Source: Pedobacter sp. (GTDB taxonomy: Bacteria > Bacteroidota > Bacteroidia > Sphingobacteriales > Sphingobacteriaceae). Taken from it: a stretch of 64,000 bases of DNA. Location: NCBI RefSeq assembly GCF_045627485.1, contig NZ_JAZQNU010000050.1:1031-65030 (forward strand), written 5' to 3'. The position numbers and the translations under genes were made by a program. Each line of letters begins with the position of its first letter. Positions within the stretch are counted from its first letter, which is position 1. Shown here piece after piece: positions 18,053 through 39,439 of the stretch. The notes below the pieces were generated by a model that did no database searches, was not told the DNA's origin, and saw only the letters and a list, made by a program, of their open reading frames with translations.

Positions 18053-18231
18053 ACTTTATTCTCTTTACACGCTAGCGTATCACATCAATGCAAAGATCGT
18101 GATCACAATCAAATAATCGAAACGTTTTAATACCAAGAAACATATAATCTAAAAATTAATTTTGTTAAATGTTGTTAAAATTGTTTAAGCGATGAAATTT
18201 AATAATACCTTAGGTCTAAGATCTATTTTCT

Positions 18232-23449: not shown

Positions 23450-24142
23450 ATGCTTGAAATTGTTTACCAGGACGAACATTTAATTGCTATCAATAAACCA
23501 CACGGCTTATTGGTGCACCGATCGGTGATTGCTAACGATGCAAAGGAGTTTGCTTTGCAGCTGTTAAGGGATCAGATCAACCGTCGGGTGAGTCCGGTAC
23601 ATCGTTTGGATAGAAAAACCAGCGGATTGCTGCTGTTTGCTTTTGAAAAAGATGTGGAAATTGCCATGCACAAACAATTTCAGGAAGGCCTGGTGCAAAA
23701 ACGCTATAAAGCGGTTTTAAGGGGGTATTCGCCAGATAGCCTGGATATTGACTATCCCTTAACAAATGATAATGGGGTAGTGCAGGAGTCTTTTACTTCT
23801 TTTAGAACACTTGCCCGCGCAGAGCTTAAGGTAGCATTTGGTAAACACGAAACCAGCCGTTATTCTTTTGTGGAAGCTGCCCCAACAACTGGCCGTATGC
23901 ACCAGTTGAGAAAACACTTTGCCCATATATTTTATCCCATCATCGGCGATCGCAAACATGGTTGTAATAAACAGAACAAGTTTTTTAAAGAGCAGTGGGA
24001 TATGACCACGATGTTGCTTCACGCATCAGAGCTGGAGTTCCTGCACCCGGTAACAGGGGAGGAAATCCAGCTCCAAGCCCCGCTACATGATGAATTTAAG
24101 CGGGTAATGACGTTAATGAGTTGGGAAGCGTTTAGCGCATAA
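23450..24142 (+). CDS. truC: RluA-family pseudouridine synthase, TruC-like
   Basis: AINKPHGLLVHRS, HRLDRKTSG catalytic motif, TGRMHQLRKH, IIGD.KHG. Confidence 0.85.
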   Translation: MLEIVYQDEHLIAINKPHGLLVHRSVIANDAKEFALQLLRDQINRRVSPVHRLDRKTSGLLLFAFEKDVEIAMHKQFQEGLVQKRYKAVLRGYSPDSLDIDYPLTNDNGVVQESFTSFRTLARAELKVAFGKHETSRYSFVEAAPTTGRMHQLRKHFAHIFYPIIGDRKHGCNKQNKFFKEQWDMTTMLLHASELEFLHPVTGEEIQLQAPLHDEFKRVMTLMSWEAFSA

Positions 24143-25910
24143 CTAATTTATTTAAGGTCAGTTCTGCTTCTGCCAGTTGCTGTTGTATTTCCTCCACAGC
24201 ATGCTGGGTCTGTAATTTTAACGCCGGAACAAGTGTTTTATAATAATTGATGCCTTCTTGTAATTGCTGACTAAACTTGTTAAAGTATTTGGCTTTTTTG
24301 TCGTTCAGGTTGTCCATGTGTAAAGCCATGTCTTTCTTTAAATAGTCCAGGTACAAGTTTAATTCATTAATAAAAAGGTTTGGCCTGTTTACTTCAGCCA
24401 GTAAGTTTACGCGTCCATAAATGTGGTTAATCATTTCCGGTAATGTGTATTTGCCTGAGAAATAAGCAAGGTTAGGTCCCGGACAGATGCTTACCGCTTC
24501 GCTTTCTTTCGGTTTCAACATGTGGTTCTTTAAATAAGTAGAAGCACATAAACCTTCGCATAAACACACTTTTTCCAATACGGAATTAACTTGTCGCTGG
24601 TATTCCGCTTCCGGAAGATCCAAAGATTTTAATTGTTCGGTTTTTAAATGTTGGTATTCGCGGGAAGCTGTACAGATGGGTTCTGCTGTAAACTCAGTAT
24701 TGCTCACTAAAAGCTTTTTTTTACACGGGCTTCCCGGCCTTCCTTTGGCTATACGTTCCAAACGCAGGGTTTCGGCAGTGCTTTTAGAGAAATTGTTAAA
24801 CAATACGCCTAATGGGGAGGAATTGCTCAGGTAAAAGTCTTTTTCTTCTGCCGTAATTAAGGCATCTAAGGTTTGATCATCGACGTTTGTAGCTTCAGGA
24901 ACCAGTAAAAACGGACTTCCCCAGCCTGCAGCATCCAATTGGTAGTGGTTAAGCAAGAAGTTATGTTCTTCAGCTGTTCCTATGCCACCCTGAACTGTAA
25001 TGTGTTGTGTGCGTTTTGATGCTGCTTTCAAACCTTTGTTTTCAAGTGCTACTGTATAAAGTTTCCAAAGCTCTTCAGCAAGCTCCGTTCTTTTCTGTTT
25101 AAATTCTTCCAGTATCGGACCCATTAAAAAACCATCCGTTGCGAAGGCATGCCCGCCACAGTTTAATCCTGATTCCACTCTGAATTCGGAAATCCACAAA
25201 CCTCTTTTCGCCAGCATCTTTGCCTGAATATAAGCAGAGCGGTAATCACTCACTTTCAGGATGATCTTTTTAGCAGGCTCCCCATCTTCAGCATAAAATG
25301 CAGGACAACGCTCCATATAAGCAAACAAGCGTGGATTAAGTCCTGCAGAGATGATGATGGATGCCGCCAGATTACTTTCTGTAAAGCCACGCATCGCAGC
25401 CAGTGCATCTGAGTAATCGTCGCCTAAGGGTTCGTTTTGCTTGTTGAAATTATTTTTGTCAACCTTAGACATGATGTTCACGTCGATAGAACCTGCGGTA
25501 ATTTGAATTTTTAGTGCTTCTAAAGCTAATAAACATTCATCTTCAGGTAAAAGCATTGCCGCGTGGTACTGTTGTTTTAAAATAGCATTTTCGGGCAATA
25601 ACTGGAAATAGCGGGTTAATTCGCTATCAGGTGTAAATGCTTGCTGCTTGATGTCGGCAATCTGCCGGTTCACCAACACGTGTAATAAATTAAGGTAGGT
25701 GGTAATTCTCTTCGCGCGACTGTCTTCTTCTTTTACGGTAATTGGTGTATAAGGTATATCGTTGTGCACCGCATGGTATTTCCGCATCCGCTCTGTCAGT
25801 TCGTCATCAACGATAGAGACGACAGAAGAGATGCCATATTTAGCAACTTTTAAAGGTGTATCAATGGAATAACCTAAACCGAGAACAGGGATGTGAAAAG
25901 TATGTGTCAT
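24132..25910 (-). CDS. Uncharacterised protein; divergent FMN TIM-barrel of the NMO/FabK/FabX type with a Cys-rich C-terminal region
   Basis: Motif series IPVLGLGYS, DVNIMSK, IISAGL, LKVSDYRSA, VESGLNCGGHAF, QGGIGT, GWGSPFL, SPLG, CLCEGLC, CPGPN. Start placed at MTHTFHIP (25910). Confidence 0.7.
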   Translation of the reverse strand: MTHTFHIPVLGLGYSIDTPLKVAKYGISSVVSIVDDELTERMRKYHAVHNDIPYTPITVKEEDSRAKRITTYLNLLHVLVNRQIADIKQQAFTPDSELTRYFQLLPENAILKQQYHAAMLLPEDECLLALEALKIQITAGSIDVNIMSKVDKNNFNKQNEPLGDDYSDALAAMRGFTESNLAASIIISAGLNPRLFAYMERCPAFYAEDGEPAKKIILKVSDYRSAYIQAKMLAKRGLWISEFRVESGLNCGGHAFATDGFLMGPILEEFKQKRTELAEELWKLYTVALENKGLKAASKRTQHITVQGGIGTAEEHNFLLNHYQLDAAGWGSPFLLVPEATNVDDQTLDALITAEEKDFYLSNSSPLGVLFNNFSKSTAETLRLERIAKGRPGSPCKKKLLVSNTEFTAEPICTASREYQHLKTEQLKSLDLPEAEYQRQVNSVLEKVCLCEGLCASTYLKNHMLKPKESEAVSICPGPNLAYFSGKYTLPEMINHIYGRVNLLAEVNRPNLFINELNLYLDYLKKDMALHMDNLNDKKAKYFNKFSQQLQEGINYYKTLVPALKLQTQHAVEEIQQQLAEAELTLNKLVMR

Positions 25911-25965
25911 GTTGAAAATTGTCATTAATAATCACAAAGAAGCATACAAAATTTACTTAAAAACA

Positions 25966-25977
25966 TGACCGGCATCA
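25966..25977. promoter_or_regulatory. Fnr-type box TGAC-CGGC-ATCA
   Basis: TGAY-N4-RTCA match 55 nt upstream of ORF 25910; differs by 1 nt from the box at 28492. Confidence 0.65.
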
Positions 25978-26253
25978 CATCATTTTATGTCATTCGCTAC
26001 AGTTTGAGTAGGACTAATATTTTGGATGATGAAAAATAATATACTCGTCAATTGAATTTACCATTGGTCTTTTACACGAGTATAAGCAACGAGAAAGGGA
26101 TTTTGAAATGCTGATGCAAACAGAATGAGAAAAATGAACTTCCTTACTGCCGTAAGGCGTAAAAATGCATAAAAATCTACTTTTCGCAAATAGTACTTCA
26201 GTATGCCAATTAATTAAGCCCGATAAAAGCTTTATATTTGTAAAAATCTAAGT

Positions 26254-27438
26254 ATGGAACAAGGAAGGCTTTTAAACGCAATTATAGATAATGCTATTGA
26301 TGGCATTCTTACAATTGATAATAAAGGCGTCATAGAAAGTATCAATCCAGCGGCTTTAAAGCTTTTTGGCTACAAACAGGAGGAAGTGCTAGGGAGGAAC
26401 ATTAGTGTATTAATGCCAGAACCCGATAAAAGTGCACACGATGGTTACCTGCATCGTTATCAGCGTACAGGCGAAAAACGCATTATCGGGATTGGCCGTG
26501 AAGTTCGTGGACTGCGAAAGGACGGTTCTACTTTTCCTTTTCGTTTGGCCGTTAGTGAAGTCCAATACTTAGATCGAATTATTTACACCGGATTTATTCA
26601 CGATTTATCTAAAGAAAAGGAAGCAGAGGAACGTTTACGCGAATATGCCGCAGAACTGGAAGAACTTGTGGAGGAAAGGACCCGTTCGTTAAAGAAAACG
26701 GTTGTTGCCCTAAAGGAAGCGAAAGAGGAAGTGAGTTTATCGCTTGTTAAGGAAAAGGAACTTAACCAAATGAAAAGCCGTTTTGTGTCTATGGCTTCGC
26801 ACGAATTCCGCACACCACTCAGTTCCGTGCAGCTTTCTGCATCTCTCATTGAAAAATATGCCCAACCTTTTCAGAATCCCAACATCAGTAAACATGTTGG
26901 AAAAATTAAAAATGCTGTGGGCAACCTAACCACTATCCTAAACGACTTCCTGTCATTGGAGCGCCTGGAAGCAGGCAACGTAGAACCTACCTTCAGCACC
27001 TTTGATGTGGTTAAGTTTTCGGAGGAGGTTACCGAAGAAATGCAGATGATTGCTAAGCAGGATCAAAATATCATCTACCAGCATACCGGTATTCAAAGTA
27101 TGGTAGAGCTGGATCAGAATTTATTAAGAAACTGCATGATCAACCTGATTAGTAATGCCATTAAATATTCAGGAGAAAATACTTTTATAGAATTTAATAC
27201 TGAGATTACTGACAGCGAGTATTTTTTTATGATCAAAGACAATGGCATTGGCATTCCCCTAACAGACCAGGTACATTTGTTTGAACCATTTTTCAGGGCC
27301 AATAATACAGGTAGCATTCCAGGTACAGGCCTTGGTTTAAACATTGTTTTGCGTTATGCCACCCTGATGAACGGTAAAGTTCATTTTGAAAGCACCATTA
27401 ATAAAGGAACAACATTTATACTTTCTTTTCCAAAATAG
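26254..27438 (+). CDS. FixL-type heme-PAS sensor histidine kinase
   Basis: LMPEPDKSAHDGYLHRY..IIGIGREVRGLRKDGSTFP closely follows the FixL heme-PAS pattern, with the proximal His and distal Arg positions kept. H-box ASHEFRTPL; HATPase boxes. -7 element TATATTTG upstream. Confidence 0.9.
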   Translation: MEQGRLLNAIIDNAIDGILTIDNKGVIESINPAALKLFGYKQEEVLGRNISVLMPEPDKSAHDGYLHRYQRTGEKRIIGIGREVRGLRKDGSTFPFRLAVSEVQYLDRIIYTGFIHDLSKEKEAEERLREYAAELEELVEERTRSLKKTVVALKEAKEEVSLSLVKEKELNQMKSRFVSMASHEFRTPLSSVQLSASLIEKYAQPFQNPNISKHVGKIKNAVGNLTTILNDFLSLERLEAGNVEPTFSTFDVVKFSEEVTEEMQMIAKQDQNIIYQHTGIQSMVELDQNLLRNCMINLISNAIKYSGENTFIEFNTEITDSEYFFMIKDNGIGIPLTDQVHLFEPFFRANNTGSIPGTGLGLNIVLRYATLMNGKVHFESTINKGTTFILSFPK

Positions 27439-28494
27439 ATGAGTAAAATAAGGATACTGATAATAGAAGACAATAACGACATCAGGGAAAGCACAGCTGA
27501 GATTTTGATGCTTGCAGACTATGAAGTGATGGAAGCTAAAAATGGTAAGATTGGTGTAGAACTGGCGACAACTCATCTACCGGACGTTATTTTATGTGAT
27601 ATCATGATGCCCGAACTGGATGGGTACGGGGTGTTGTACCTGCTTAATAAAAACCCGCAGACGTCCTCCATCCCTTTTATTTTCCTGACGGCAAAAGCTG
27701 AACGCATCGATATGCGTAAGGGTATGGAAATGGGTGCAGATGATTACCTCACCAAACCTTTTGACGATGTTGAATTACTCAACGCCATAGAAAGTCGCCT
27801 TGCTAAGAAAAACAAGCAGAAAGCATTTTACAGTAAATCACTTGAACAGTTAAGCGGACTGATTGGAACCACTTCTGGTTTACATGCCCTTCAGAAATTA
27901 GTGGCGGAGCGTAAAGTGCGTCACATTAAAAAGAAACAGGTCATTTATTATGAGGGTGATAGTGTAACCGGTATATTCCTGGTGATCCAGGGCAAAGTGA
28001 AAACTGTGAAACTCAATGAAGATGGCAGACAGTTGATGACGGGAATTTACGGAAATGAGGAATACTTTGGAATCACCAGCCTATTACTTCAAGAACCTTA
28101 TGCAGAAACCGCGGAGGCGCTGGAAGATACCACCATTTGTTTATTACCCAAAGACATGATGGAAGACCTGTTAAACCAGTTTCCTGACCTTGGGCGTAAA
28201 TTTATTAAAATACTTTCCAACCAACTGCTCGATAAGGAAGAACAACTGATGCAGCTGGCTTATCACTCGGTAAGAAAACGTTTATCCGAAGTTTTGATTC
28301 GCCTTGCAAAACAGGAAAAATCAGGGAATCCTGTGTTAAAGGTGTCGCGCGATAACCTGGCGGCATTGGCGGGCATGGCTACAGAAACGGTAAGCCGTAT
28401 TTTAAGCGACTTTAAAGAGGAGAGCATTATTGAAAGAAAAGGAAGCCAGATTCATATTATAGACTTTCATAGGTTGGAGCATATGAAAAACTGA
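27439..28494 (+). CDS. Response regulator: receiver + cNMP-binding + Crp/Fnr HTH
   Basis: IIEDN..LCDIMMP..FLTAK receiver; cNMP barrel; VSRDNLAALAGMATETVSR Fnr-type helix. Abuts the kinase stop codon. Confidence 0.93.
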   Translation: MSKIRILIIEDNNDIRESTAEILMLADYEVMEAKNGKIGVELATTHLPDVILCDIMMPELDGYGVLYLLNKNPQTSSIPFIFLTAKAERIDMRKGMEMGADDYLTKPFDDVELLNAIESRLAKKNKQKAFYSKSLEQLSGLIGTTSGLHALQKLVAERKVRHIKKKQVIYYEGDSVTGIFLVIQGKVKTVKLNEDGRQLMTGIYGNEEYFGITSLLLQEPYAETAEALEDTTICLLPKDMMEDLLNQFPDLGRKFIKILSNQLLDKEEQLMQLAYHSVRKRLSEVLIRLAKQEKSGNPVLKVSRDNLAALAGMATETVSRILSDFKEESIIERKGSQIHIIDFHRLEHMKN

Positions 28495-28503
28495 CCAGCA
28501 TCA
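28492..28503. promoter_or_regulatory. Fnr-type box TGAC-CAGC-ATCA
   Basis: Overlaps the regulator stop codon; upstream of -7 element TATTTTTG (28549-28556) and the ORF 28576-hemN operon. Confidence 0.65.
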
Positions 28504-28575
28504 TATTTCAAACTGATGTAACGCATTCCCTCGTTGTTGCGGTCTCTTTATTTTTGATCTATTAAAAGATCAAGT

Positions 28576-29028
28576 ATGAGAGTAGTAGCCTATAGTATAA
28601 AATCTTCTGAAAAAGAGCCACTGGCCATCGCCAACCGAAAGAAGCATGAAATTACTTTAATTTCTAATGCATTAAGCGAGGACACAGCCATTTACGCGCA
28701 AGGAAAAGAAGCCGTTATTGTTTATGAAGGCGATGTTGTAAATGCCAGTGTGATTAATATCCTCGCTGATCTTGGCATTAAATACATCACAACCAGATCA
28801 AATTCAACTGCCCATATTGATGAACGTGCTGCAGAAAGCAGGCAGATCAAACTGGCCTATGTGCATTCTGACAGTATCGACCAGCTTTCCAACGAAACCT
28901 TATTAAACGTGTTAGCAGCCGAAACAATTAGTAACCTTGACAAATGGCAAGGTAAACGCTGTTTAGGATCTGCATGTATCTGTTCTGCAACGTGTCGCGG
29001 ACCTTTAAAAACAGAACATGAACACTAA
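28576..29028 (+). CDS. D-lactate-dehydrogenase-like substrate-binding domain only (no NAD domain), Cys-rich tail
   Basis: N-terminus follows the LdhA pattern (VAYS.K..EK, A.G.EAV.V..GD, ILADLGIKYITTRS..HID..AA) and then jumps to the C-terminal helix AETISNL; tail CLGSACICSATC. Confidence 0.75.
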   Translation: MRVVAYSIKSSEKEPLAIANRKKHEITLISNALSEDTAIYAQGKEAVIVYEGDVVNASVINILADLGIKYITTRSNSTAHIDERAAESRQIKLAYVHSDSIDQLSNETLLNVLAAETISNLDKWQGKRCLGSACICSATCRGPLKTEHEH

Positions 29029-30382
29029 AGCATTAATACAAAAATATAATGTAGCGGCACCACGCTACACCAGTTATCCTACCGTTCCGTTCTGGGATCA
29101 GGCTACATTTAATCAAGAAAACTGGGCCAAGGCTGTTGTACAAACCTTTAATGACAGTAATACCAGTGATGGTATCAGTGTATATATTCACCTTCCTTTT
29201 TGTGAAAGTTTGTGTACCTATTGTGGATGCAACACCCGGATTACCGTAAATCATAAAGTCGAAGAACCTTATATCGCTACAGTACTGAAAGAATGGTCAT
29301 ATTATGTGGCATTATTTAAAGACAGGCCTCAGATCAAAGAATTGCACCTTGGCGGTGGTACACCAACATTTTTCAGTGCAGAAAACTTAAAGCAGTTAAT
29401 TGCCGGAATTTTCGCGTTAGCAGACCGTCATCCTGATGCTGAATTTAGCTTTGAGGGTCATCCGGGCAATACCCGGAAAGAGCACCTTGCTACTTTATTT
29501 GATTTAGGATTCAAACGCCTGAGTCTGGGTATACAGGATTTTGACCCAAGGGTACAATTGATTATCAATCGTATTCAAAGTTACGAGGAAGTGCAACTGG
29601 CTACCCAGCAAGCACGGGATGCCGGTTATACCTCTGTGAATTATGATTTGATTTATGGTTTGCCTTTGCAAACCCTGGAAGGTTTGCAGGAAACCATAAA
29701 TTACGTTTTGCAACTTAAACCAGACCGTATTGCTTATTACAGCTATGCACATGTGCCGTGGATAAAACCGGGTCAACGACGTTATACCGAAAAAGACCTT
29801 CCATCGTCGGCTTTAAAGCAACAACTTTATGAGGTAGGGCGGGAGATGCTGAAAGCAGGTGGTTATACCGAGGTGGGCATGGATCATTTTACCCTGACCA
29901 GCGATACCTTGTATGCTGCTGCAGAAGATGGCGGTTTACACCGTAACTTTATGGGCTACACCCACCAGTACAGTCGTTTGATGATCGGTTTGGGGGTTTC
30001 ATCGATAAGTGATACCTGGACCGGTTTTGCGCAAAATGTTAAAAAAGTTGAAGACTACACAGCCTTGGTAGAAGCCGGGGAAATTCCAGTGTTTAAAGGC
30101 CATATTTTGGATGAAGCCGATGTGTTGTTACGCCAGCATATATTGAATATCATGTGTAAAGGTGAAACATCATGGGCGCTGAAAACGGAGCAACATCCTG
30201 ACTTTTATGAAGGACTGGAGCGAATGGAATTATTGGCTCTGGATGGATTGGTAACCCTAAATGATCAGCACTTAAAGGTTACGGAGGAAGGAAAGCGTTT
30301 TTTAAGAAATATCTGCATGGCTCTTGATGCCCGTTTATGGCGAAACCAGCCTACAACACCATTATTTAGTATGGCCGACTAA
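29018..30382 (+). CDS. hemN: Oxygen-independent coproporphyrinogen III oxidase
   Basis: PRYTSYPT, HLPFCESLCTYCGC radical-SAM motif, RNFMGYT. Confidence 0.97.
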   Translation: MNTKALIQKYNVAAPRYTSYPTVPFWDQATFNQENWAKAVVQTFNDSNTSDGISVYIHLPFCESLCTYCGCNTRITVNHKVEEPYIATVLKEWSYYVALFKDRPQIKELHLGGGTPTFFSAENLKQLIAGIFALADRHPDAEFSFEGHPGNTRKEHLATLFDLGFKRLSLGIQDFDPRVQLIINRIQSYEEVQLATQQARDAGYTSVNYDLIYGLPLQTLEGLQETINYVLQLKPDRIAYYSYAHVPWIKPGQRRYTEKDLPSSALKQQLYEVGREMLKAGGYTEVGMDHFTLTSDTLYAAAEDGGLHRNFMGYTHQYSRLMIGLGVSSISDTWTGFAQNVKKVEDYTALVEAGEIPVFKGHILDEADVLLRQHILNIMCKGETSWALKTEQHPDFYEGLERMELLALDGLVTLNDQHLKVTEEGKRFLRNICMALDARLWRNQPTTPLFSMAD

Positions 30383-30388
30383 TTGTAG

Positions 30389-31072
30389 TTATTTACACTC
30401 GGCCACACTAGTGGTTTGTTTAGCCGGACTCACAAAAGGAATATCTAAATTCATTCCCCTTAATAAAAACCAGCAACCCAGAAAAAGCAACATAAAGGGA
30501 ATTACCTTGTTGATGCGCTGGCGTACCAAGTTACCTGTAAAACCCATGCCAATGGTGGCTATTAACATGAGGGGAGTGGTACCTACACCAAACCAGAACA
30601 TATAACTAACAGCAAGGGACATGTTTCCTGTGTTTAATGCACCGGCCAGCGCCAGGTAAACAAAGCCACAAGGCAATAAGCCGTTAATCATACCTATGAT
30701 GAGGTGATTTGCTTTATGTTTTAAGGCATAACCAAACAGTTTGTTAAAGGGTTTAAGCAGGATACTACTGCTGTTGGCGATTGTTAATTTAAAAATTCTG
30801 GAACAAGCTGCGGCAATAATTAGGATACCTGTAAAAATACTGATTCCCTGTTGCAGGCCAGATAACCAGATTTGGCGGCCTATTAATCCAATTACTATGC
30901 CTAATACACAATAGGAAAGGATTCGGCCGGCTTGGTACAATACCTTGTCGAGCACGACATAACCTATGCCAGATTTTAAAGAAGGTACAGCAAATGCCAA
31001 AGGGCCACACATACCAATGCAATGTACGCTACCCAACAGGCCAATCATGAAAGCCAGGTATTGATCGCTCAT
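30389..31072 (-). CDS. DsbD_2 / TauE-SafE-like membrane protein of cbb3 assembly clusters
   Basis: GSVHCIGMCGP, GMINGLLPCGFVY; last gene of the cco cluster. Confidence 0.9.
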   Translation of the reverse strand: MSDQYLAFMIGLLGSVHCIGMCGPLAFAVPSLKSGIGYVVLDKVLYQAGRILSYCVLGIVIGLIGRQIWLSGLQQGISIFTGILIIAAACSRIFKLTIANSSSILLKPFNKLFGYALKHKANHLIIGMINGLLPCGFVYLALAGALNTGNMSLAVSYMFWFGVGTTPLMLIATIGMGFTGNLVRQRINKVIPFMLLFLGCWFLLRGMNLDIPFVSPAKQTTSVAECK

Positions 31073-31494
31073 TATAACATTACCTCCTTTTCATATAAAT
31101 AATCTACCCCTTCACTGGTCCAGTCGATTCTTAGTTTCCACAATCCTGTGGCAATACCACTTATTGGGATATTGAACTGGTTAAGGCTATCTGTTTTCAG
31201 GGTCATTGATTTATCCATTGTCTTATCAGCAGTTCTGATTAGTTTGACATTGCCAGTGGCCTGCTGGTTAAATAACAGGTTTAGTTGCTGGTCATGGATC
31301 ATCACTTTAGGCGCCGCCTGATCACGCAGTACCTGGGTTTTTTTCTGGTACTCTACGTTGTAGCTAATGCCTTTTTCATAATAGTCGGCATCAACTAGGT
31401 CATCATTTTTACTGGTCATCATTAAATAGGCCAGTACCATGATGAATGTCATAAATACGCCTAATCCTAATGCTATTTTTAATCCCCAATTCAT
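31072..31494 (-). CDS. ccoH: FixH/CcoH family protein
   Basis: MNWG..TM..DLVDADYYEKGISY. Start moved to MNWG to avoid overlap with ccoG. Confidence 0.88.
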   Translation of the reverse strand: MNWGLKIALGLGVFMTFIMVLAYLMMTSKNDDLVDADYYEKGISYNVEYQKKTQVLRDQAAPKVMIHDQQLNLLFNQQATGNVKLIRTADKTMDKSMTLKTDSLNQFNIPISGIATGLWKLRIDWTSEGVDYLYEKEVML

Positions 31495-31498
31495 GTTG

Positions 31499-32863
31499 TT
31501 ATTCGTTAGGTGGTGCAATAAAGGTGGTATTGAAACGGTCAATTATTTTTCCGCCCGAAACAAGCCTGAAGCTAATTTCTGTTTTATATTTTTTGATGTG
31601 TTGTTGTGGCATAATCACGAAGAAGGTAAGCTTCGCCTGTCCGCCATAACGGAGTTTGTCTTCTTTTTGAATGTATTGAATACTGGCTTTATCATCATCA
31701 GGAACGATTTCAAAAGACAGGTCGCCGCTGGTTTTATTAATCAACTCTGCATTGTAGAGATTGGTAACGGTATTTTCCTTTTCGCGCAACTGGTAGAGCG
31801 TTCCACTTGCCCTGAGTACGGTGGTTTTTACATCACTTCGGCTTATTAGGAGGTAGCTTAACACACTAACAAGTACCAGTAATACGGCACTGTAACCATA
31901 AATACGTTTGTTGAGTTTAATAGGCTGGTGATTTTTAATTTCTTCTTCAGATTTGAACCCAATTAAGCGCCTTGGCCTGTTAATCTTTTCCATTACCATG
32001 TCGCACGCATCGATACAGGCAGTACAATTAACGCATTCCATTTGAGTGCCGTTTCTGATATCAATTCCCGTAGGACACACGTGCACACATAACTTACAGT
32101 CGATGCAATCACCTAGCTGGTTGTTCTCTTCTTTCAACTTTTTACCTCTGGGTTCACCACGCAGATAATCATATGCCACGATCATACTTTGGTTATCGAG
32201 CAATACACCTTGCAACCTGCCATACGGACAAGCTACGGTACATACCAGCTCCCGCATTCTGGAGAAAACAAGGTAAAATAAGATGGTGAAGATACAAATG
32301 GATAGAAAGCCAGTGAGGTGGAGGCTCACCGGTTCTGTAACGATTTTAAGTAAAGCCGTAGTACCAATGATGTAAGCGAGAAAGATGTTGGCAATAAAGA
32401 ACGAAAGGCAGAAAAAGATCCCGTGTTTTAAGGTTTTTTTGAAGAATTTATTCCAGGTGAGTGGCGATTCATCCATTTTTTTTTGTTTCAGGTAATCGCC
32501 TTCAATCCAGTTTTCGATTTTACGGAACACCATTTCCAGAAATATGGTTTGGGGGCAGGCCCATCCACAGAAAACGCGGCCAAAGACTACCGTGAAAAGC
32601 ACAATAAAAACAATAAAAGTAAGCAAGCCCAAAACAAATAAGTAGAAATCCTGTGGCCAGAAAATGATGCCGAAGAACACAAATTTACGTTCAAGGACAT
32701 TCAAGAGGATAAGTTGTTGGCCATTTACTTTAATGAAGGGTGCTGCAAAGAGCAGCGCCAAGAAAAAGTAACTGACTACAGAGCGGTATTTATAGAGTTT
32801 ACCCTTTATAATACGGGGATAGATCCATTTTCTAGCTGAGGAATAGTTTGGGCTTGCTAACAT
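31499..32863 (-). CDS. ccoG: Cytochrome c oxidase accessory protein CcoG (4Fe-4S)
   Basis: GRVFCGWACPQT, CTVACPYGRLQ, CIDCKLCVHVCPTGIDIR, CVNCTACIDACD. Confidence 0.97.
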   Translation of the reverse strand: MLASPNYSSARKWIYPRIIKGKLYKYRSVVSYFFLALLFAAPFIKVNGQQLILLNVLERKFVFFGIIFWPQDFYLFVLGLLTFIVFIVLFTVVFGRVFCGWACPQTIFLEMVFRKIENWIEGDYLKQKKMDESPLTWNKFFKKTLKHGIFFCLSFFIANIFLAYIIGTTALLKIVTEPVSLHLTGFLSICIFTILFYLVFSRMRELVCTVACPYGRLQGVLLDNQSMIVAYDYLRGEPRGKKLKEENNQLGDCIDCKLCVHVCPTGIDIRNGTQMECVNCTACIDACDMVMEKINRPRRLIGFKSEEEIKNHQPIKLNKRIYGYSAVLLVLVSVLSYLLISRSDVKTTVLRASGTLYQLREKENTVTNLYNAELINKTSGDLSFEIVPDDDKASIQYIQKEDKLRYGGQAKLTFFVIMPQQHIKKYKTEISFRLVSGGKIIDRFNTTFIAPPNE

Positions 32864-32865
32864 AA

Positions 32866-33669
32866 TTACAGTTGCTTATCGCCCTGAGGCGCTTTAGCAC
32901 CTTCAGGATTTGTGCCTTGAAGAGACATTACATAATTGGTGATGTCGGATAATTGGGCGGCGCTCAGTGATTTTTCCCAAGCCACCATTCCTTTTTCCGG
33001 CACACCATATTTAATGGTTTTAAAAACATCGCTAATGGTACCACCGTGTAACCAGTATTCGTCGGTTAAGTTGGGACCTACAGAGCCTTCTCCTTTTTCA
33101 CCATGACAAGGTGTACAACGGGAGGTGTAAAGTGCAAGGCCACTGTTAATTACTGCAGCATCTGTACTTTGTACAATGTTGTTCTCATTCACTGCATTTT
33201 TTGAGTTACCCGGTTTGGATAAAAAGGCTATTTTAGCTTCTTCGGCCTGTGCAAGTTCGGTCAGGTATTCCTCTTCCTGGTCTTGTCCGAAGCCAAATAC
33301 CTCGTAATTAAATAAGTAGATGACGGCGAAGATCACGGTACCATAAAACAATACCATAAACCAACCTGGTGTAGGATTGTCTAACTCGGCAATGCCATCG
33401 AACTCATGTTCCATCATCTGGTCTTTTTCTTCTGCCAATGGCCTTAGGCCCATTAATTTTTCAATTAAAGTAGGGCGCTTAGGTTGTGCAGCTTTTGCTG
33501 CGGCCATGGCCTGAAGCTTTAATGCTTTCTCGGCTGGAGTGGCAAAAGGTATTGGGTTTTTAGTTTCCTCCACATAAAATTTAATCACTTTTAGCAGGAG
33601 GATTGACACCCCAAGGATCATAACGGCGGTGATGCCTAAAGCAATCACCATAATTTCTGCGTAGCTCAT
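32866..33669 (-). CDS. ccoP: cbb3-type cytochrome c oxidase subunit III (single heme motif)
   Basis: HEFDGIAELDNPTPGW N-terminal motif; one CTPCH; GPNLTDEYWLHG. Confidence 0.95.
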   Translation of the reverse strand: MSYAEIMVIALGITAVMILGVSILLLKVIKFYVEETKNPIPFATPAEKALKLQAMAAAKAAQPKRPTLIEKLMGLRPLAEEKDQMMEHEFDGIAELDNPTPGWFMVLFYGTVIFAVIYLFNYEVFGFGQDQEEEYLTELAQAEEAKIAFLSKPGNSKNAVNENNIVQSTDAAVINSGLALYTSRCTPCHGEKGEGSVGPNLTDEYWLHGGTISDVFKTIKYGVPEKGMVAWEKSLSAAQLSDITNYVMSLQGTNPEGAKAPQGDKQL

Positions 33670-33672
33670 AAT

Positions 33673-33837
33673 CTATTCTTCGTCGTTTAATGGCAGTTGG
33701 CTCATGTAGTTTACTTCCTCTTTTTTCATCAGGAGGAGCATAATGCCCACCATGATGAAAAAGAAAAAGAATATGCCTAATGAGATCATTAAATACACCT
33801 GCTTGTCGTCTACCTGATTTAAAAATTGCCTAAACAT
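33673..33837 (-). CDS. ccoQ: cbb3-type oxidase subunit CcoQ (54 aa), not in ORF track
   Basis: Hand translation MFRQFLNQVDDKQVYLMISLGIFFFFFIMVGIMLLLMKKEEVNYMSQLPLNDEE; one TM plus the ..LPLND tail; sits between ccoNO and ccoP. Confidence 0.9.
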   Translation of the reverse strand: MFRQFLNQVDDKQVYLMISLGIFFFFFIMVGIMLLLMKKEEVNYMSQLPLNDEE

Positions 33838-33855
33838 GTTTTTGTATTTTAAGTG

Positions 33856-35967
33856 TTATTTTGCTTTAATGTCTGTTCCTAATCGTTGGAGGTAAGCAAT
33901 AAGTGCAACAATCTCCTTGTCGCTTTTTACCTTTACGTTGTTTTGCTTCAAATCTGCAGCGATGGCTTTGGCTTGAATATCAAGGTCTTTGTTGGCCTGG
34001 TGTTCATAACCTTCAGCGTAAGGCACCCCTAAGGTTCTCATGGCGTTAATTTTAGCAATCGTTGTGGTGGTATCCAGCACTTGGTTGGCTAACCATTCGT
34101 AAGGAGGCATAATACTTCCCGGCGACATGGTTTGTGGATCTACCATGTGGTTGTAATGCCATGCATTGGTGTACTTCTGACCCAGACGTTGTAAATCAGG
34201 ACCTGTACGTTTAGAACCCCATAAAAAAGGATGGTCGTACACAAATTCACCTGCTTTACTGTATTCGCCAAAGCGCTCCGTTTCTGATCGGAAAGGACGG
34301 ATCATTTGCGAGTGGCAGTTTACACAGCCTTCTTTAATATAAACATCTCTTCCATGTAATTCCAGCGGAGTATAAGGTTTTACGCTTGAAATGGTTGGGA
34401 TATTAGATTTAATGGTAAAGGTTGGCATCATTTCTACCATACCACCAATCAGGATAACGATCAGTGACAATACCAGGAATACCATTGGTTTGCGTTCAAG
34501 CACACGGTGCCATTTTTTATCAGAGCCTTCAGCTACATAAGTAGCAGGAAGTGGTAGTGACTCTGCAGCTTCATCTGCAACCAATTTGCCGGCAAGTGCT
34601 GTTTTGATCAGGTTATAAGTCATCACAATTACTCCGATTAAGTAAAGGGCGCCGCCGATGGCTCTCAATACATACATTGGAATAATCTGAATAACGGTTT
34701 CAAGGAAGTTAGGATATCTTAATACACCTTCTTCGGTGAATTCTTTCCACATTAAACCTTGGGTGAAACCTGCAAAATATAAAGGTACGGCATAGAAAAT
34801 GATCCCTAAGGTGCCAATCCAGAAGTGGAAGGATGCTAATTTTTTAGAGAATAACTGGGTGTTGTAAATTCTTGGGATTAACCAGTACAGGATACCGAAG
34901 GTTAAGAATCCATTCCAGCCTAAGGCGCCTACGTGAACGTGTGCTACTATCCAGTCGGTATAGTGGGCAATGGCATTAATCTGTTTGAAAGCAAGCATAG
35001 GGCCTTCGAAAGTAGCCATACCATAGGCGGTTAAACCTACTACCATGAACTTCAGTTTTGGATCCTCACGCACCTTATCCCAGGCGCCACGCAGCGTAAG
35101 CAAACCGTTGATCATACCACCCCAACTTGGTGCAATTAACATCACGGAGAAAGCAACACCTAAAGATTGTGCCCAGCCAGGTAGTGAAGTATATAATAAA
35201 TGGTGAGGGCCTGCCCAGATATAAATAAAGATTAACGACCAGAAGTGGAGGATACTAAGTTTATAGGAATAGATAGGCCGCTGTGCCATTTTAGGAAGGA
35301 AGTAATACATCATTCCTAAATAAGGGGTAGTTAAAAAGAACGCTACTGCATTGTGGCCGTACCACCATTGTACTAGTGCATCCTGCACGCCCGCAAAAAG
35401 GTAATAGCTTTTAAATGCTGAAATTGGTAACTGGAAAGAGTTAACAATGTGTAATACAGCAACCGTAACGAAAGTGGCAATGTAAAACCAGATGGCTACA
35501 TACATGTGCTTTTCACGGCGTTTAAAAATGGTACCGAACATATTGATTCCGAATACTACCCATATTAAGGTGATGGCGATATCAATTGGCCATTCCATTT
35601 CTGCATATTCATGCGAAGTGGTTAATCCGAGTGGAAGTGTAATGGCAGTGGCGACAATAATGAGTTGCCAACCCCAGAAATGGATTTTGCTTAACACATC
35701 GCTAAACATTCTAGCCTTGAGTAGTCGTTGGAGAGAGTAATAAACCCCCATAAAAATGGCGTTCCCCACGAAAGCGAAAATAACTGCATTAGTGTGTAGT
35801 GGCCTGATGCGGCCGAAGGTGGTGTATTGACTTCCCATGTTCAATGACGGCTTAAACAGCTGCATAGCGATGAGGAGGCCAACTGACATGCCAACAATGC
35901 CCCAGACGATGGTGGCAATGGCAAAGTTTCTGACGATCTTGTTGTCGTAGTAGAATTTCTCAGTCAT
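33856..35967 (-). CDS. ccoN: Fused cbb3-type oxidase subunits I/II (CcoN-CcoO)
   Basis: RPLHTNAVIF, WWYGHNAVAF, WAGPHH, HVHVGALGW (CcoN); GCVNCHSQMIRP, WGSKRTGPDL (CcoO). Confidence 0.98.
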   Translation of the reverse strand: MTEKFYYDNKIVRNFAIATIVWGIVGMSVGLLIAMQLFKPSLNMGSQYTTFGRIRPLHTNAVIFAFVGNAIFMGVYYSLQRLLKARMFSDVLSKIHFWGWQLIIVATAITLPLGLTTSHEYAEMEWPIDIAITLIWVVFGINMFGTIFKRREKHMYVAIWFYIATFVTVAVLHIVNSFQLPISAFKSYYLFAGVQDALVQWWYGHNAVAFFLTTPYLGMMYYFLPKMAQRPIYSYKLSILHFWSLIFIYIWAGPHHLLYTSLPGWAQSLGVAFSVMLIAPSWGGMINGLLTLRGAWDKVREDPKLKFMVVGLTAYGMATFEGPMLAFKQINAIAHYTDWIVAHVHVGALGWNGFLTFGILYWLIPRIYNTQLFSKKLASFHFWIGTLGIIFYAVPLYFAGFTQGLMWKEFTEEGVLRYPNFLETVIQIIPMYVLRAIGGALYLIGVIVMTYNLIKTALAGKLVADEAAESLPLPATYVAEGSDKKWHRVLERKPMVFLVLSLIVILIGGMVEMMPTFTIKSNIPTISSVKPYTPLELHGRDVYIKEGCVNCHSQMIRPFRSETERFGEYSKAGEFVYDHPFLWGSKRTGPDLQRLGQKYTNAWHYNHMVDPQTMSPGSIMPPYEWLANQVLDTTTTIAKINAMRTLGVPYAEGYEHQANKDLDIQAKAIAADLKQNNVKVKSDKEIVALIAYLQRLGTDIKAK

Positions 35968-36027
35968 ACTTAAATAATGGATGGTTTTGATGGGGGTAAA
36001 ATTACAAGGGCATTAGCCGGAGGAGTA

Positions 36028-36039
36028 TGATGGTTGTTA
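36028..36039. promoter_or_regulatory. Fnr-type box TGAT-GGTT-GTTA (1 mismatch) upstream of ccoNO
   Basis: 60 nt upstream of the ccoN start; overlaps the ccoS stop. -7-like TAATTTTA on the minus strand at 35997-36004. Confidence 0.5.
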
Positions 36040-36225
36040 ATGTGAAGTGTGATCTTCATCATTTTTCTTCAATGGCTGATCAGTCAGCTCATCGTCAAAT
36101 AATATCCTGATGCCAGGCGTATAGGTGTCGTCATTCTGACCGGTTCTGGATGCCCAAAAAAAGGCGGTTAAAAATACCAGCGCCAGCAGAATGCTGATGC
36201 CGATAAGCATATAGATCATGTTCAT
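36037..36225 (-). CDS. ccoS: cbb3 oxidase assembly protein CcoS
   Basis: TM..FFWASRTGQNDDTYTPGIRILFDD. Confidence 0.95.
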   Translation of the reverse strand: MNMIYMLIGISILLALVFLTAFFWASRTGQNDDTYTPGIRILFDDELTDQPLKKNDEDHTSH

Positions 36226-38618
36226 AATAGATGGTTTTTTCTGGCATACAACCTTGCGGCGATGCTGGTAAATAAGATGATGGTTACCGTGCTGATGGGC
36301 ATGAGTATAGCCGCAAAGAGGGGAGACATTAAGCCTTGAACAGCAAAGTACAAGCCTATGAAGTTATAGGTTAGGGAAATGACAAAGCTCATGTGGATGA
36401 CTTTCACGCCATCTTTTGCCTGTTGTATAAACTGGGGAATTTTATTGAAGTTAGCACCATCCAGGATGGCGTCGCATCCTGGCGTAAAGTTATTGATGTC
36501 GTCTGTTACGGCTACACCAAGGTCGCTTTGTTTCAGTGCACCTGCATCATTTAAGCCATCGCCAAACATTAATACTTTTCTGCCTTTATGCTGCAGGGCG
36601 AGTACATAATCGAGTTTGTTTTGTGGTGACTGCTGGAAATGCATTTGCTGTATCCTTGGGAAAAAGGGACTAAGGCTTATACGGTCATGGTCCTGGTCGC
36701 CAGACAGTAAATGAAGGTCGGCACGTTTACTCAGGCATGTAATTAATTCTTTAAAGCCTGTACGCCATTGCTGCCCCGAAAGGAAGTAGCCTTTGTAATC
36801 ATTGTTGATCACCACATGTACCTGACTTCCCTGAGGTAGATCTTGCTTGTCGAGGCCAAGAAAAGCAGCGCTGCCCAGTTTAATGTCCTGTCCGTTGACT
36901 GTTCCCATTACACCACGGCCAACTTTTTCCCGGTAATCTGATACCTGGTATTGTGTCGGTAGGTCAAGCCATTTAACCAGCTCACGGCTTAAAGGATGGC
37001 CCGAATTCCTGGCCAAGTCACTGATTGCCTGTTTTTCCTGAGAATTTAAATCACCTTTAAAATTAAAACCAGAGGCCTTTGGGTTGGTGATGGTGCCGGT
37101 TTTGTCGAAGATAAAGGTGTCTATTCGCGCCAGCTCTTCTATAACAGAGGTGTTTTTTAAATAAAACTTATTCCTGTCAAAAACACTTAGCACGGCTGCC
37201 AGTGTAAATGGGGAACTTAAAGCAAGTGCACAAGGGCAGGCAATTATAAGCACTGCCGTGAAAGATGCCCATGCTTTTGACGGATCAAAAATCAACCAGT
37301 AGATAGCCGACAGCGTAGCTACCAACACCAATACAATGCTGAAATATTTACTGGCTGTGCCGCTAAAAGTTTTAATTCGGTCCTTATCGGCAGTGAAGGT
37401 TTCATTATTCCATAACCTTGTGAGGTAACTCTGAGAAACCGGTTTAACCACTTCCAGTTCAATGGCGCCACCTAATTGTCGCCCACCTGCATAGACCACT
37501 TCGCCCAAAATTTTCTCTACCGGTTTCGATTCTCCGGTTACAAAGCTGAAGTCAAGTTTTGCAGTACCGTAAAGTAAAATGGCATCTGCAGGAATAATTT
37601 CATTGCTGCGGATCAAAATGCGGTGTCCCTTTTTTAAATCGCCTAAAGGCAAGGGTTTATCCTTTCCATTTTCAATGATGGTTACGGCAACAGGAAAGTA
37701 GGATCGGTAGTCTCTTTCGAAAGAAAGATGATGATAGGTATGTTGCTGCATCCATTTGCCCACAAGCAGGAAGAATACCAGCCCACAAAGGGTGTCGATA
37801 AAACCTGCGCCGGTGTAAGTGGCAATTTCTATCAGGGAGCGGATAAACATCACTGCTATACCGAGGGCCAGTGGAAAATCAAGGTTGAGCACCCCATTTT
37901 TTAAATTGAGCCAGGCAGATTTGAAATATTCTGTTGCACTATAGAATACCACCGGAAGGGCAAAGGCGATATTGAGCCAGCCAAAGAAGTTCTTGAACTC
38001 TGTTTCCAATGTGGATAGGCCAAAATATTCAGGAAAGCTGAGTAACATGGTGTTACCGAAGCAGAAACCAGCGACGGCGATTTTAGTAATCAAAGTGCGG
38101 TTATCATCGTTGTTTTGTTTTTCTTTAACAACATCCTGCAGACTGATCAGTGGTTCGTAGCCAATATTGGCAAGTGTTTCTACAACGGTTCTTAACGTTG
38201 CTTTATCATTTTTGAACGTAATGGCGACTTGTTTCTTTAAGAAATCGATCCTCGACTGTGTAATGGCGGGGTTGATTTTGTATAGGTTTTCCAATAACCA
38301 GATGCAGGAACTGCAGTGTATATTAGGAATATAAAAGGTTACCACCGTTACCTCTGCGTCGCAGTAATCAACCAGGCCAGCGGCAATGGCGGGTTCATCG
38401 AGATAGTCGAAATGTTGCTTAGGTTGCTGTTGTGTTTGTCCGGGCACATCATTGTATGCATAGTAGTTGCATAAATTATGGCTGGATAAAATCTGGTATA
38501 CGCCCTTGCATCCCAAACAACAAAATTGTCTGTCGTCTAGTGTATAAGGACTAGTGGGTAAGTCTTCGCCGCAGTGATAACAATGCGTTTCTACAGAAAT
38601 GGTGTTGGTGTTTGACAT
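36222..38618 (-). CDS. ccoI: Heavy-metal (Cu) P1B ATPase CcoI/FixI
   Basis: CYHCG..CCLGC N-terminus, HCSSC, ACPCAL, DKTGT, GDGLND. Confidence 0.95.
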   Translation of the reverse strand: MSNTNTISVETHCYHCGEDLPTSPYTLDDRQFCCLGCKGVYQILSSHNLCNYYAYNDVPGQTQQQPKQHFDYLDEPAIAAGLVDYCDAEVTVVTFYIPNIHCSSCIWLLENLYKINPAITQSRIDFLKKQVAITFKNDKATLRTVVETLANIGYEPLISLQDVVKEKQNNDDNRTLITKIAVAGFCFGNTMLLSFPEYFGLSTLETEFKNFFGWLNIAFALPVVFYSATEYFKSAWLNLKNGVLNLDFPLALGIAVMFIRSLIEIATYTGAGFIDTLCGLVFFLLVGKWMQQHTYHHLSFERDYRSYFPVAVTIIENGKDKPLPLGDLKKGHRILIRSNEIIPADAILLYGTAKLDFSFVTGESKPVEKILGEVVYAGGRQLGGAIELEVVKPVSQSYLTRLWNNETFTADKDRIKTFSGTASKYFSIVLVLVATLSAIYWLIFDPSKAWASFTAVLIIACPCALALSSPFTLAAVLSVFDRNKFYLKNTSVIEELARIDTFIFDKTGTITNPKASGFNFKGDLNSQEKQAISDLARNSGHPLSRELVKWLDLPTQYQVSDYREKVGRGVMGTVNGQDIKLGSAAFLGLDKQDLPQGSQVHVVINNDYKGYFLSGQQWRTGFKELITCLSKRADLHLLSGDQDHDRISLSPFFPRIQQMHFQQSPQNKLDYVLALQHKGRKVLMFGDGLNDAGALKQSDLGVAVTDDINNFTPGCDAILDGANFNKIPQFIQQAKDGVKVIHMSFVISLTYNFIGLYFAVQGLMSPLFAAILMPISTVTIILFTSIAARLYARKNHLL

Positions 38619-38689
38619 AGCTAAACGGTATGTTGCAAAGTTGTAACACCGGGCGCTATGCTAAAATGACAAGCCTACTTACTAAAATG

Positions 38690-38701
38690 TGACAGGGATC
38701 A
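38690..38701. promoter_or_regulatory. Fnr-type box TGAC-AGGG-ATCA upstream of ccoI
   Basis: Perfect TGAY-N4-RTCA, extended GTGAC..ATCAC, 71 nt upstream of ccoI; overlaps the stop of the nei-like gene. Confidence 0.65.
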
Positions 38702-39439
38702 CTTATTGTAAAGCTGCTGGCAATTATTGCAGAAGAAAGTTCGGCGGTTTGTTTTGCCGAGATACTCCTTAATCATGGGTAGGTTGCACCTAAGGCAGGT
38801 GCGCTTGGTATGGGCCAGCCAATGTTTTTTAAGGGTAAATTCTTTTTTCCAGCGCAGGAAGTCGTAGCTGTAAATGCGTGCCTCACGTACCATCTGCAAT
38901 AGTAGATCTGGAGGTAAGGCACCTACCTGGCTGCTAGGGTGTACATATATCCGGTAAAGGACTTCGTTTTTGATGATGTTTCCTACGCCGGCAAAGATGT
39001 CCTGATCAAGAAGGGCATCGCAGACTAAAGTTTTGGGTTGCTTCTTTAGTTTGTTGATGGCGGCATGTTCATCCCACGTGGGCGACAATACATCGGCCGA
39101 CCAGTCGTAAACCAGATCAGGATCACCTTCTATAATTTTGAGGGAACAACCATAAAAGTTAAGTTCAGCATTTTCAAAGTGTAAACTTAAGCGGACAGGT
39201 GTTTCCTTGCGCTCGTTAATCCGATAGGTACCAAACAATAGAAAGTGAACCCTAAGGCTAAAGTCGGGGAAGCAGAGCAGAAAGTGCTTGCCCCAACTTT
39301 TAATGGCAGTTATAGGTTCACCAGACATTCGATCTTTTTCAATCGAGGTATTTCCTGCTACCGCGATTACTTTTTGCCCTTTCAGTTTTAATGGCTCTAA
39401 CAGTTCTTTAAGGATTACAATTGATGGACCTTCGGGCAT
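38699..39439 (-). CDS. Fpg/Nei family DNA glycosylase (endonuclease VIII-like)
   Basis: N-terminal MPEG, H2TH motif LLDQDIFAGVGNI, C-terminal CLRC..CNNC zinc finger. Confidence 0.93.
   Translation of the reverse strand: MPEGPSIVILKELLEPLKLKGQKVIAVAGNTSIEKDRMSGEPITAIKSWGKHFLLCFPDFSLRVHFLLFGTYRINERKETPVRLSLHFENAELNFYGCSLKIIEGDPDLVYDWSADVLSPTWDEHAAINKLKKQPKTLVCDALLDQDIFAGVGNIIKNEVLYRIYVHPSSQVGALPPDLLLQMVREARIYSYDFLRWKKEFTLKKHWLAHTKRTCLRCNLPMIKEYLGKTNRRTFFCNNCQQLYNK

Follow-up and report, generated by a model that had tools for sequence, protein, structure and literature searches.

FNR and FixK proteins recognise the inverted repeat TTGAT-N4-ATCAA, and a site centred at about -41.5 is the classical class II position of CRP and FNR activators. 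In rhizobia, FixK2 and FixK boxes (TTGA-Y-N4-R-TCAA) precede fixNOQP, fixGHIS and hemN, and the heme-PAS kinase FixL stands upstream of a Crp/Fnr regulator with an E--SR helix. A 64,000-nucleotide stretch of the genome of a Pedobacter sp. (contig NZ_JAZQNU010000050.1, positions 1,031 to 65,030; here called the window) contains a gene cluster with the same targets, namely a cbb3 oxidase, its assembly genes and hemN, the same upstream partners and the same box core, TGAY-N4-RTCA. It is likely that these boxes act as activator operators at four low-oxygen promoters, and the adjacent receiver-Crp/Fnr fusion protein (RR1, here the 27439 regulator; 27439-28494, plus strand) is the most probable protein to read them.

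The circuit is of a known kind, with FNR/Anr/FixK boxes before cco/fix genes and hemN, and what is new is the fusion, the flanks of the boxes, their tandem arrangement and the promoter type. Unlike the FixL-FixJ-FixK cascade, the system has neither FixJ nor a separate FixK, and fusion of the receiver to the Crp/Fnr protein makes it a two-protein circuit. No FixJ-type gene (receiver plus LuxR-type helix-turn-helix, HTH) is found in the cluster, where the gene abutting the kinase encodes the fusion of receiver, cyclic nucleotide monophosphate (cNMP)-binding domain and HTH_Crp. The outer T/A of the FixK box is absent and a G and an A5/T5 tract are found instead, the sites abut in tandem with the distal one stronger, and the promoters carry the Bacteroidota element TAnnTTTG. 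Class II promoters of E. coli FNR and Pseudomonas Anr resemble those described here in the inverted repeat, which here has a predicted centre at about -41.5 and would likewise replace the upstream promoter element, in the helix residues E, S and R, and in a regulon (putative here) that joins a high-affinity oxidase to oxygen-independent heme synthesis. They differ from the present system in that the 27439 regulator lacks an N-terminal Cys cluster (two Cys in all), oxygen presumably being sensed by the kinase, and in that most promoters here have a second, stronger box at a predicted -63.5. The E. coli CRP site (AAATGTGATCTAGATCACATTT) shares the preference for GTGA...TCAC and the A/T-rich flanks, whereas here Thr replaces Arg180, an A tract replaces the T of TGTGA, and a receiver domain is present. 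Induction of a cbb3 oxidase and of heme synthesis at low oxygen has been described in a flavobacterium, in a paper that names no regulator (PMC9723704).

The exact core pattern TGAYNNNNRTCA (that is, TGAY-N4-RTCA) was searched in the window and compared with shuffled sequence. Nine matches were found against 3.6 expected, a number reached in 1 of 100 shuffles, and the cluster contains four of them, at 25966, 28492, 36050 and 38690, each with the inverted-repeat core TGA-N6-TCA of FNR/FixK-type operators. The remaining five fit the chance expectation and lie in coding sequence or score low in the extended matrix described below. Among these is an exact box at 18100-18111 (TGATCACAATCA), intergenic between divergent genes, without A/T flanks and with a low matrix score, which is probably a chance match. 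At the genome-wide rate of 269 exact boxes per 3.62 Mb, the five cluster promoter windows of ~60 nt would hold ~0.02 boxes, and four were observed. The original prediction had listed boxes at 25966, 28492 and 38690, whose sequences are as given and exact, and a fourth at 36028 (TGATGGTTGTTA), which ends in GTTA and not RTCA and thus does not fit the pattern proposed. This 12-mer, rejected as a full box, was reread on the minus strand as TAACAACCATCA, a conserved weak promoter-proximal site, and the perfect box that had been overlooked (TGATCTTCATCA, 36050-36061) lies 22 bp from it. The remark that three of the listed boxes use stop codons proved accurate: these are the TGA of the regulator gene (28492-28494), the stop of the nei-like gene (38699-38701, minus strand) and the TAA of ccoS (36037-36039).

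To define the element beyond its core, 56 orthologous sites from other genomes were aligned by the core, so that the flanks played no part in site selection. The full element reads aaaaa(G)-TGAY-N4-RTCA-(Y)tttt, with the consensus AAAAAGTGATCTAGATCACTTTTT and with 1.0-1.3 bits at each position of the A5 and T5 flanks. Immediately before TGA, 36 sites have G, 12 have A, 8 have C and none has T; after TCA, T is found in 30 and C in 24. The FNR/FixK consensus TTGAT-N4-ATCAA, which had been invoked for these boxes, therefore does not describe them, as none of the 56 sites has the outer T and the element reaches into the A5/T5 flanks instead. Nor was TTGAYN4RTCAA with one mismatch enriched in the window (13 matches against 11.7 expected), and the outer T/A was rejected as part of the motif. 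The CRP-type operator TGTGA-N6-TCACA with its R-E...R helix does not fit either, since GTGA is frequent but preceded by A and not TG, and the helix of the regulator starts with T-E. When a matrix derived from other genomes only was run over the 3.6 million positions of this genome, the boxes of the window ranked 1, 2, 4 and ~15. Based on these counts and on the comparison with relatives that follows, the boxes are real, conserved elements and putative operators of the FNR/FixK type.

Bacteroidota promoters differ from the sigma-70 type. A TAnnTTTG-like element stands 22-24 nt downstream of the proximal box at all four promoters (P1 to P4), and the distance from the centre of that box to the T of the predicted TAnnTTTG is 29.5 nt at P2, P3 and P4 and 30.5 nt at P1. 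As the sigma-A box TAnnTTTG of Flavobacterium psychrophilum spans -12 to -5 (PMC9723704), the proximal boxes would be centred at -41.5 (P2-P4) or -42.5 (P1) and the distal ones at -63.5 or -64.5, positions that depend on predicted promoters. P2 (ldh-like/hemN), P3 (ccoNO) and P4 (ccoI) each pair a strong distal box with a weak one, which lies 22, 22 and 23 bp further on, respectively, and the conserved part of the weak boxes is the right half-site, RTCA or CTCA. This spacing is not confined to the cluster: 22-bp pairs with at least one perfect member are enriched genome-wide, with 8 pairs against a background of ~1.

P1 has a single box, TGACCGGCATCA (25966-25977), a putative operator of a minus-strand gene of 592 or 597 aa, that is conserved in 15 other Pedobacter genomes and accounts for the lowest of the four genome-wide ranks (~15). 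The predicted -7 element at P1, TTCTTTGT (25934-25941, minus strand), aligns with TATTTTG in relatives. The 597-aa open reading frame (24132-25925, minus strand) probably starts at the ATG at 25910, relatives aligning from residue 6, and has no Pfam or NCBIfam match. P2 serves the second target unit (28576-30382, plus strand), which consists of a truncated 2-hydroxyacid-dehydrogenase-like (ldh-like) gene of 150 aa (28576-29028, plus strand) and hemN (29018-30382, plus strand; TIGR00538, E = 1e-124). The distal box of P2, TGACCAGCATCA (28492-28503, ~-63.5), includes the stop codon of RR1 as its TGA and ranks jointly 1-2 genome-wide, the proximal weak box, TGATGTAACGCA (28514-28525, ~-41.5), appears in relatives as TGAYnnnnCTCA or TAAGnnnnCTCA, and the predicted -7 element, TATTTTTG (28549-28556, plus strand), fits TAnnTTTG and has a TAnnTTTG-like counterpart at the same position in relatives. 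P3 lies before the third unit (30389-35967, minus strand), comprising the ccoNO fusion, ccoQ, ccoP, ccoG, fixH and a DsbD_2-family gene. Here the perfect distal box TGATCTTCATCA (~-63.5, rank 1 genome-wide) lies within the C-terminal ccoS codons D-E-D-H, the weak proximal box TAACAACCATCA (36028-36039, minus strand, ~-41.5) takes its TAA from the ccoS stop codon, and the predicted -7 element at 35997-36004 (minus strand) is TAATTTTA, with TAATTTTA or TACCTTTG in relatives. P4 precedes the fourth unit (36037-38618, minus strand), made up of ccoI, which encodes a P-type ATPase (36222-38618, minus strand), and ccoS (36037-36225, minus strand). The TCA of the distal box of P4, TGACAGGGATCA (38690-38701, ~-64.5, rank 4 genome-wide), is the stop of the upstream nei-like gene (38699-39439, minus strand); the weak proximal box, TGACAAGCCTAC (38667-38678, ~-41.5), follows at 23 bp, and a predicted -7-like element, CAACTTTG (38636-38643, minus strand), corresponds to CATTTTTG in relatives.

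The comparison covered 20-kb regions from 18 other Pedobacter genomes, of which 7 are close relatives and 11 more distant ones. All share the gene content, and gene order is conserved within each clade. Each orthologous promoter in the 18 has a box at a fixed distance from its start codon, whereas loss of the boxes from such promoters is what would have refuted the original prediction. The box lies 82-84 nt from the start codon at ccoI, 88-102 nt at ccoNO and mostly 83-87 nt at the ldh-like/hemN unit (165 in two genomes with a mis-set start), and at the 592-aa gene there is either a single box at 52-72 nt or a pair spaced by 22 or 44 bp. The half-sites are retained, the four spacer bases vary between species, and in close relatives between 5 of 5 and 5 of 7 exact boxes per 20 kb sit at the four promoters. 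In a second Pedobacter clade (L072-L082) the genes from the 592-aa gene through the DsbD_2 gene all lie on one strand in a different order, and hemN, ccoI and ccoS are contiguous. There ccoI has no box, which indicates that the boxes track promoters and not genes. The ldh-like promoter of this clade has TAAY in place of TGAY as its left half-site and keeps the right half-site and the T-tract.

The overlaps with coding sequence can be judged from the same comparison. The overlap with the stop codon at ccoI varies among relatives while the box stays. In ccoS, the codon that gives the first T of the box encodes N, S, T or G depending on the species and its third base is always T, and the Asp whose codon gives the T of ATCA is encoded by GAT throughout, GAC being absent. 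The box embedded in ccoS is, from these codon choices, under constraint at the DNA level. At 36037-36070 the C-terminal tail of CcoS, otherwise not conserved, closes with a conserved (S/T/N/G)-(D/E)-E-D-H, with K for E in one genome; as the codons of this stretch encode the putative distal operator of ccoNO, the segment is dual coding. In families in which ccoS abuts ccoNO, the tail is absent.

The proteins next to the boxes fit the operators. The FixL-type sensor kinase (26254-27438, plus strand; heme-PAS, HisKA and HATPase by Pfam) matches the FixL heme domains 1d06 and 1dp6 with E = 2e-32, and the alignment, in which HDGYL and IIGIGR are paired, covers the proximal-His motif and the FG-loop Arg. 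The receiver of the 27439 regulator is complete (E10, D11, D54, T84 and K106) and is joined to a cNMP-binding fold and to a Crp-type HTH whose helix, T-E-T-V-S-R, has the E--SR pattern of FNR and FixK. The expectation of a regulator with an ExxSR helix was thus borne out by ETVSR in a receiver-cNMP-HTH_Crp protein. Its two Cys residues are C53 and one in the cNMP fold, and the N-terminal Cys cluster and central Cys that hold the [4Fe-4S] cluster in FNR proper are missing; no NCBIfam equivalog covers the protein. Full-length homologs occur in 34 of 41 related genomes. Close homologs of the regulator come from Pedobacter. Within the genus, 23 genomes have a regulator of at least 50% identity together with ccoNO, and 2 have neither. 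The region before the kinase gene (26190-26253) contains a -7 box, TATATTTG, that is strongly conserved and lies ~15 nt before the ATG. No box stands at -41.5 of this promoter of the kinase/regulator operon, and 282 nt separate the kinase gene from the P1 box. Autoregulation of the operon is unsupported on both counts, and the sensor/regulator operon is probably constitutive, as judged from its promoter sequence.

Taken together, these features suggest the following mechanism. As oxygen falls, the FixL-type heme kinase would phosphorylate the 27439 regulator, whose dimers would bind the strong distal box and, cooperatively, the weak proximal one. At each promoter a box centred ~41.5 nt upstream of the predicted start would take the place of a -33 element, and at three of them the second, stronger box would abut it one step of 22-23 bp further upstream. 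The bound regulator would then recruit RNA polymerase to the TAnnTTTG promoters and activate ccoNOQP-GH, ccoIS, the truncated ldh-like gene with hemN, and the 592-aa gene. In this scheme we infer the identity of the binder, the activating direction, the role of phosphorylation and the cooperativity.

Several observations weigh against so direct an assignment. The -7 boxes of P1 and P4 are imperfect, the core 12-mer is common to several Crp-family proteins, the third of which in this genome adjoins similar boxes, genomes without the fusion keep their cco boxes, so that the box alone does not identify its regulator, and a paralog with an identical helix could bind the same boxes. That the window boxes belong to the 27439 protein alone is something we infer from linkage. 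The original prediction had taken them for operators of this regulator that define a local regulon; conserved cis-elements beside an FNR-type regulator and a FixL kinase are upheld, while the sites turn out to be mostly tandem and the regulon is not only local.

The paralog is the basis of the strongest alternative, namely that the boxes are genuine FNR-type sites read mainly or jointly by the paralog, or by both proteins interchangeably, with no private regulon of the 27439 protein. This receiver-Crp/Fnr gene (C88:19739-20815) is 57% identical to the 27439 regulator, has the same recognition helix, MATETVSR, and no adjacent kinase gene, and its product may share the FixL-type kinase. It lies in an island (C88:9600-21800) with ldhA, a P-type ATPase, hsp20, ppsA, usp and small coiled-coil proteins. 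The island has four perfect 22-bp tandem pairs, and a fifth pair is found at C128:2100-2660 before a paralog of one of the small proteins; their core is that of the window boxes, and they precede ldhA together with a divergent unknown gene, hsp20, ppsA, a tandem-Usp gene and a small coiled-coil protein. The C88-type boxes, however, are without A5/T5 flanks and score at most 12 in the cco-type matrix, against 15.6-22.8 for the window boxes, which suggests two sub-motifs, cco-type and C88-type. In addition, four Pedobacter genomes in which the cco-linked, 27439-type protein is the only receiver-Crp protein keep the boxes at all four promoters. The ppsA gene, the one gene of the island for which orthologs were sought, is absent from these four genomes and occurs in 3 of 17; its only close ortholog (70%, G016) adjoins a 55%-identical receiver-Crp protein and is not preceded by a promoter, and no tandem boxes were found upstream of two ~51%-identical ppsA genes. 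The island itself looks, from its gene content, like a stress regulon of the hypoxia/dormancy type. On this evidence, control by the paralog instead of, or interchangeably with, the 27439 regulator is an unlikely explanation of the window boxes.

Decidedly less probable still is that the boxes are repressor sites, or belong to an unrelated Crp-family protein such as a stand-alone FNR, their linkage to the FixL/receiver-Crp pair being coincidental. Such a protein does exist elsewhere: two genomes that have ccoNO and no fusion encode a stand-alone FNR-like protein with several N-terminal Cys, the gene being divergent from ccoI in one of them, and boxes similar to those of the window are still present before their cco genes. 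Presumably, the Cys-rich FNR serves these boxes, and their persistence in fusion-less genomes implies that the operator is older than the sensor attached to it. In the present genome, only three proteins exceed the HTH_Crp_2 cut-off. The third, encoded on contig C70 (C70:27285-29435), has the helix REVISR and its own GGTGAC-N4-GTCACC boxes beside it, which precede a TauE-like gene and a YeeE/YedE-like membrane gene and probably belong to a small regulon of their own whose core motif is similar. Against repression and coincidence alike, centres at -41.5 without a -33 element are typical of activation, and the regulator and cco genes co-occur without exception in the genus. That the matches are chance, or a by-product of stop codons and coding constraint, is hardly credible: the core is short, the other five window matches look like background, three sites share bases with stop codons and one is within a coding region, yet the excess in the promoter windows, the constancy of position across 18 genomes despite variable spacers, the conservation of the non-coding flanks, and a box that stays where the ccoI overlap or the CcoS residue changes refute this explanation.

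With the receiver-Crp/Fnr fusion retained as the most likely reader of the window boxes, high-scoring sites elsewhere in the genome indicate that its putative regulon is not purely local. At C30:20403-20414 an extended box lies 22 nt before the TATCTTTG element of an acyl-ACP desaturase gene (C30:19370-20350, minus strand), and the gene of an oxygen-dependent desaturase thus has the motif in common with the 592-aa gene of the window. At C209:37243-37360 the box aaattgTGACATACGTCAtttttt is followed after 23 nt by TAATTTTG; next come ~60 conserved nt and a GC hairpin plus T run. Two relatives (L089 and L090) have the same layout, in which the box spacer differs and no start codon is conserved, and the element is a candidate for a low-oxygen small RNA. 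Like FnrS, the small RNA activated by FNR in enterobacteria, it would be a short terminator-ended transcript behind a -41.5 box; it differs from FnrS in having no sequence similarity to it, and the candidate transcript has no Rfam match. Perhaps, and this is a tentative proposal, these elements belong to a phosphorylation-gated form of FNR control in many Bacteroidota, in which a heme-FixL kinase switches a receiver-Crp/Fnr fusion that binds as a dimer of dimers to 22-bp tandems, strong at -63.5 and weak at -41.5. The A/T flanks might then sort paralogs with the same helix into one regulon of respiration, heme, fatty acids and an FnrS-like small RNA and another of hypoxia or dormancy (usp, hsp20, ldhA and ppsA).

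The fusion family is widespread: 41 of the 301 Bacteroidota genomes in an even sample have a member, as do 35 of 142 genera, and more than 8000 protein clusters belong to it, all with generic names. A full-text search of the literature turned up nothing on receiver-Crp/Fnr fusions, nor on FNR boxes in Bacteroidota. For this family the boxes offer a testable operator, a promoter architecture and a first regulon. They also point to an operator that is retained while the oxygen input differs by lineage, a heme kinase with a receiver in one case and an iron-sulfur FNR in the other. The arrangement extends beyond the genus: in one genome of another family, perfect 22-bp tandem boxes stand before ccoS-ccoNO and between the regulator gene and ccoI.

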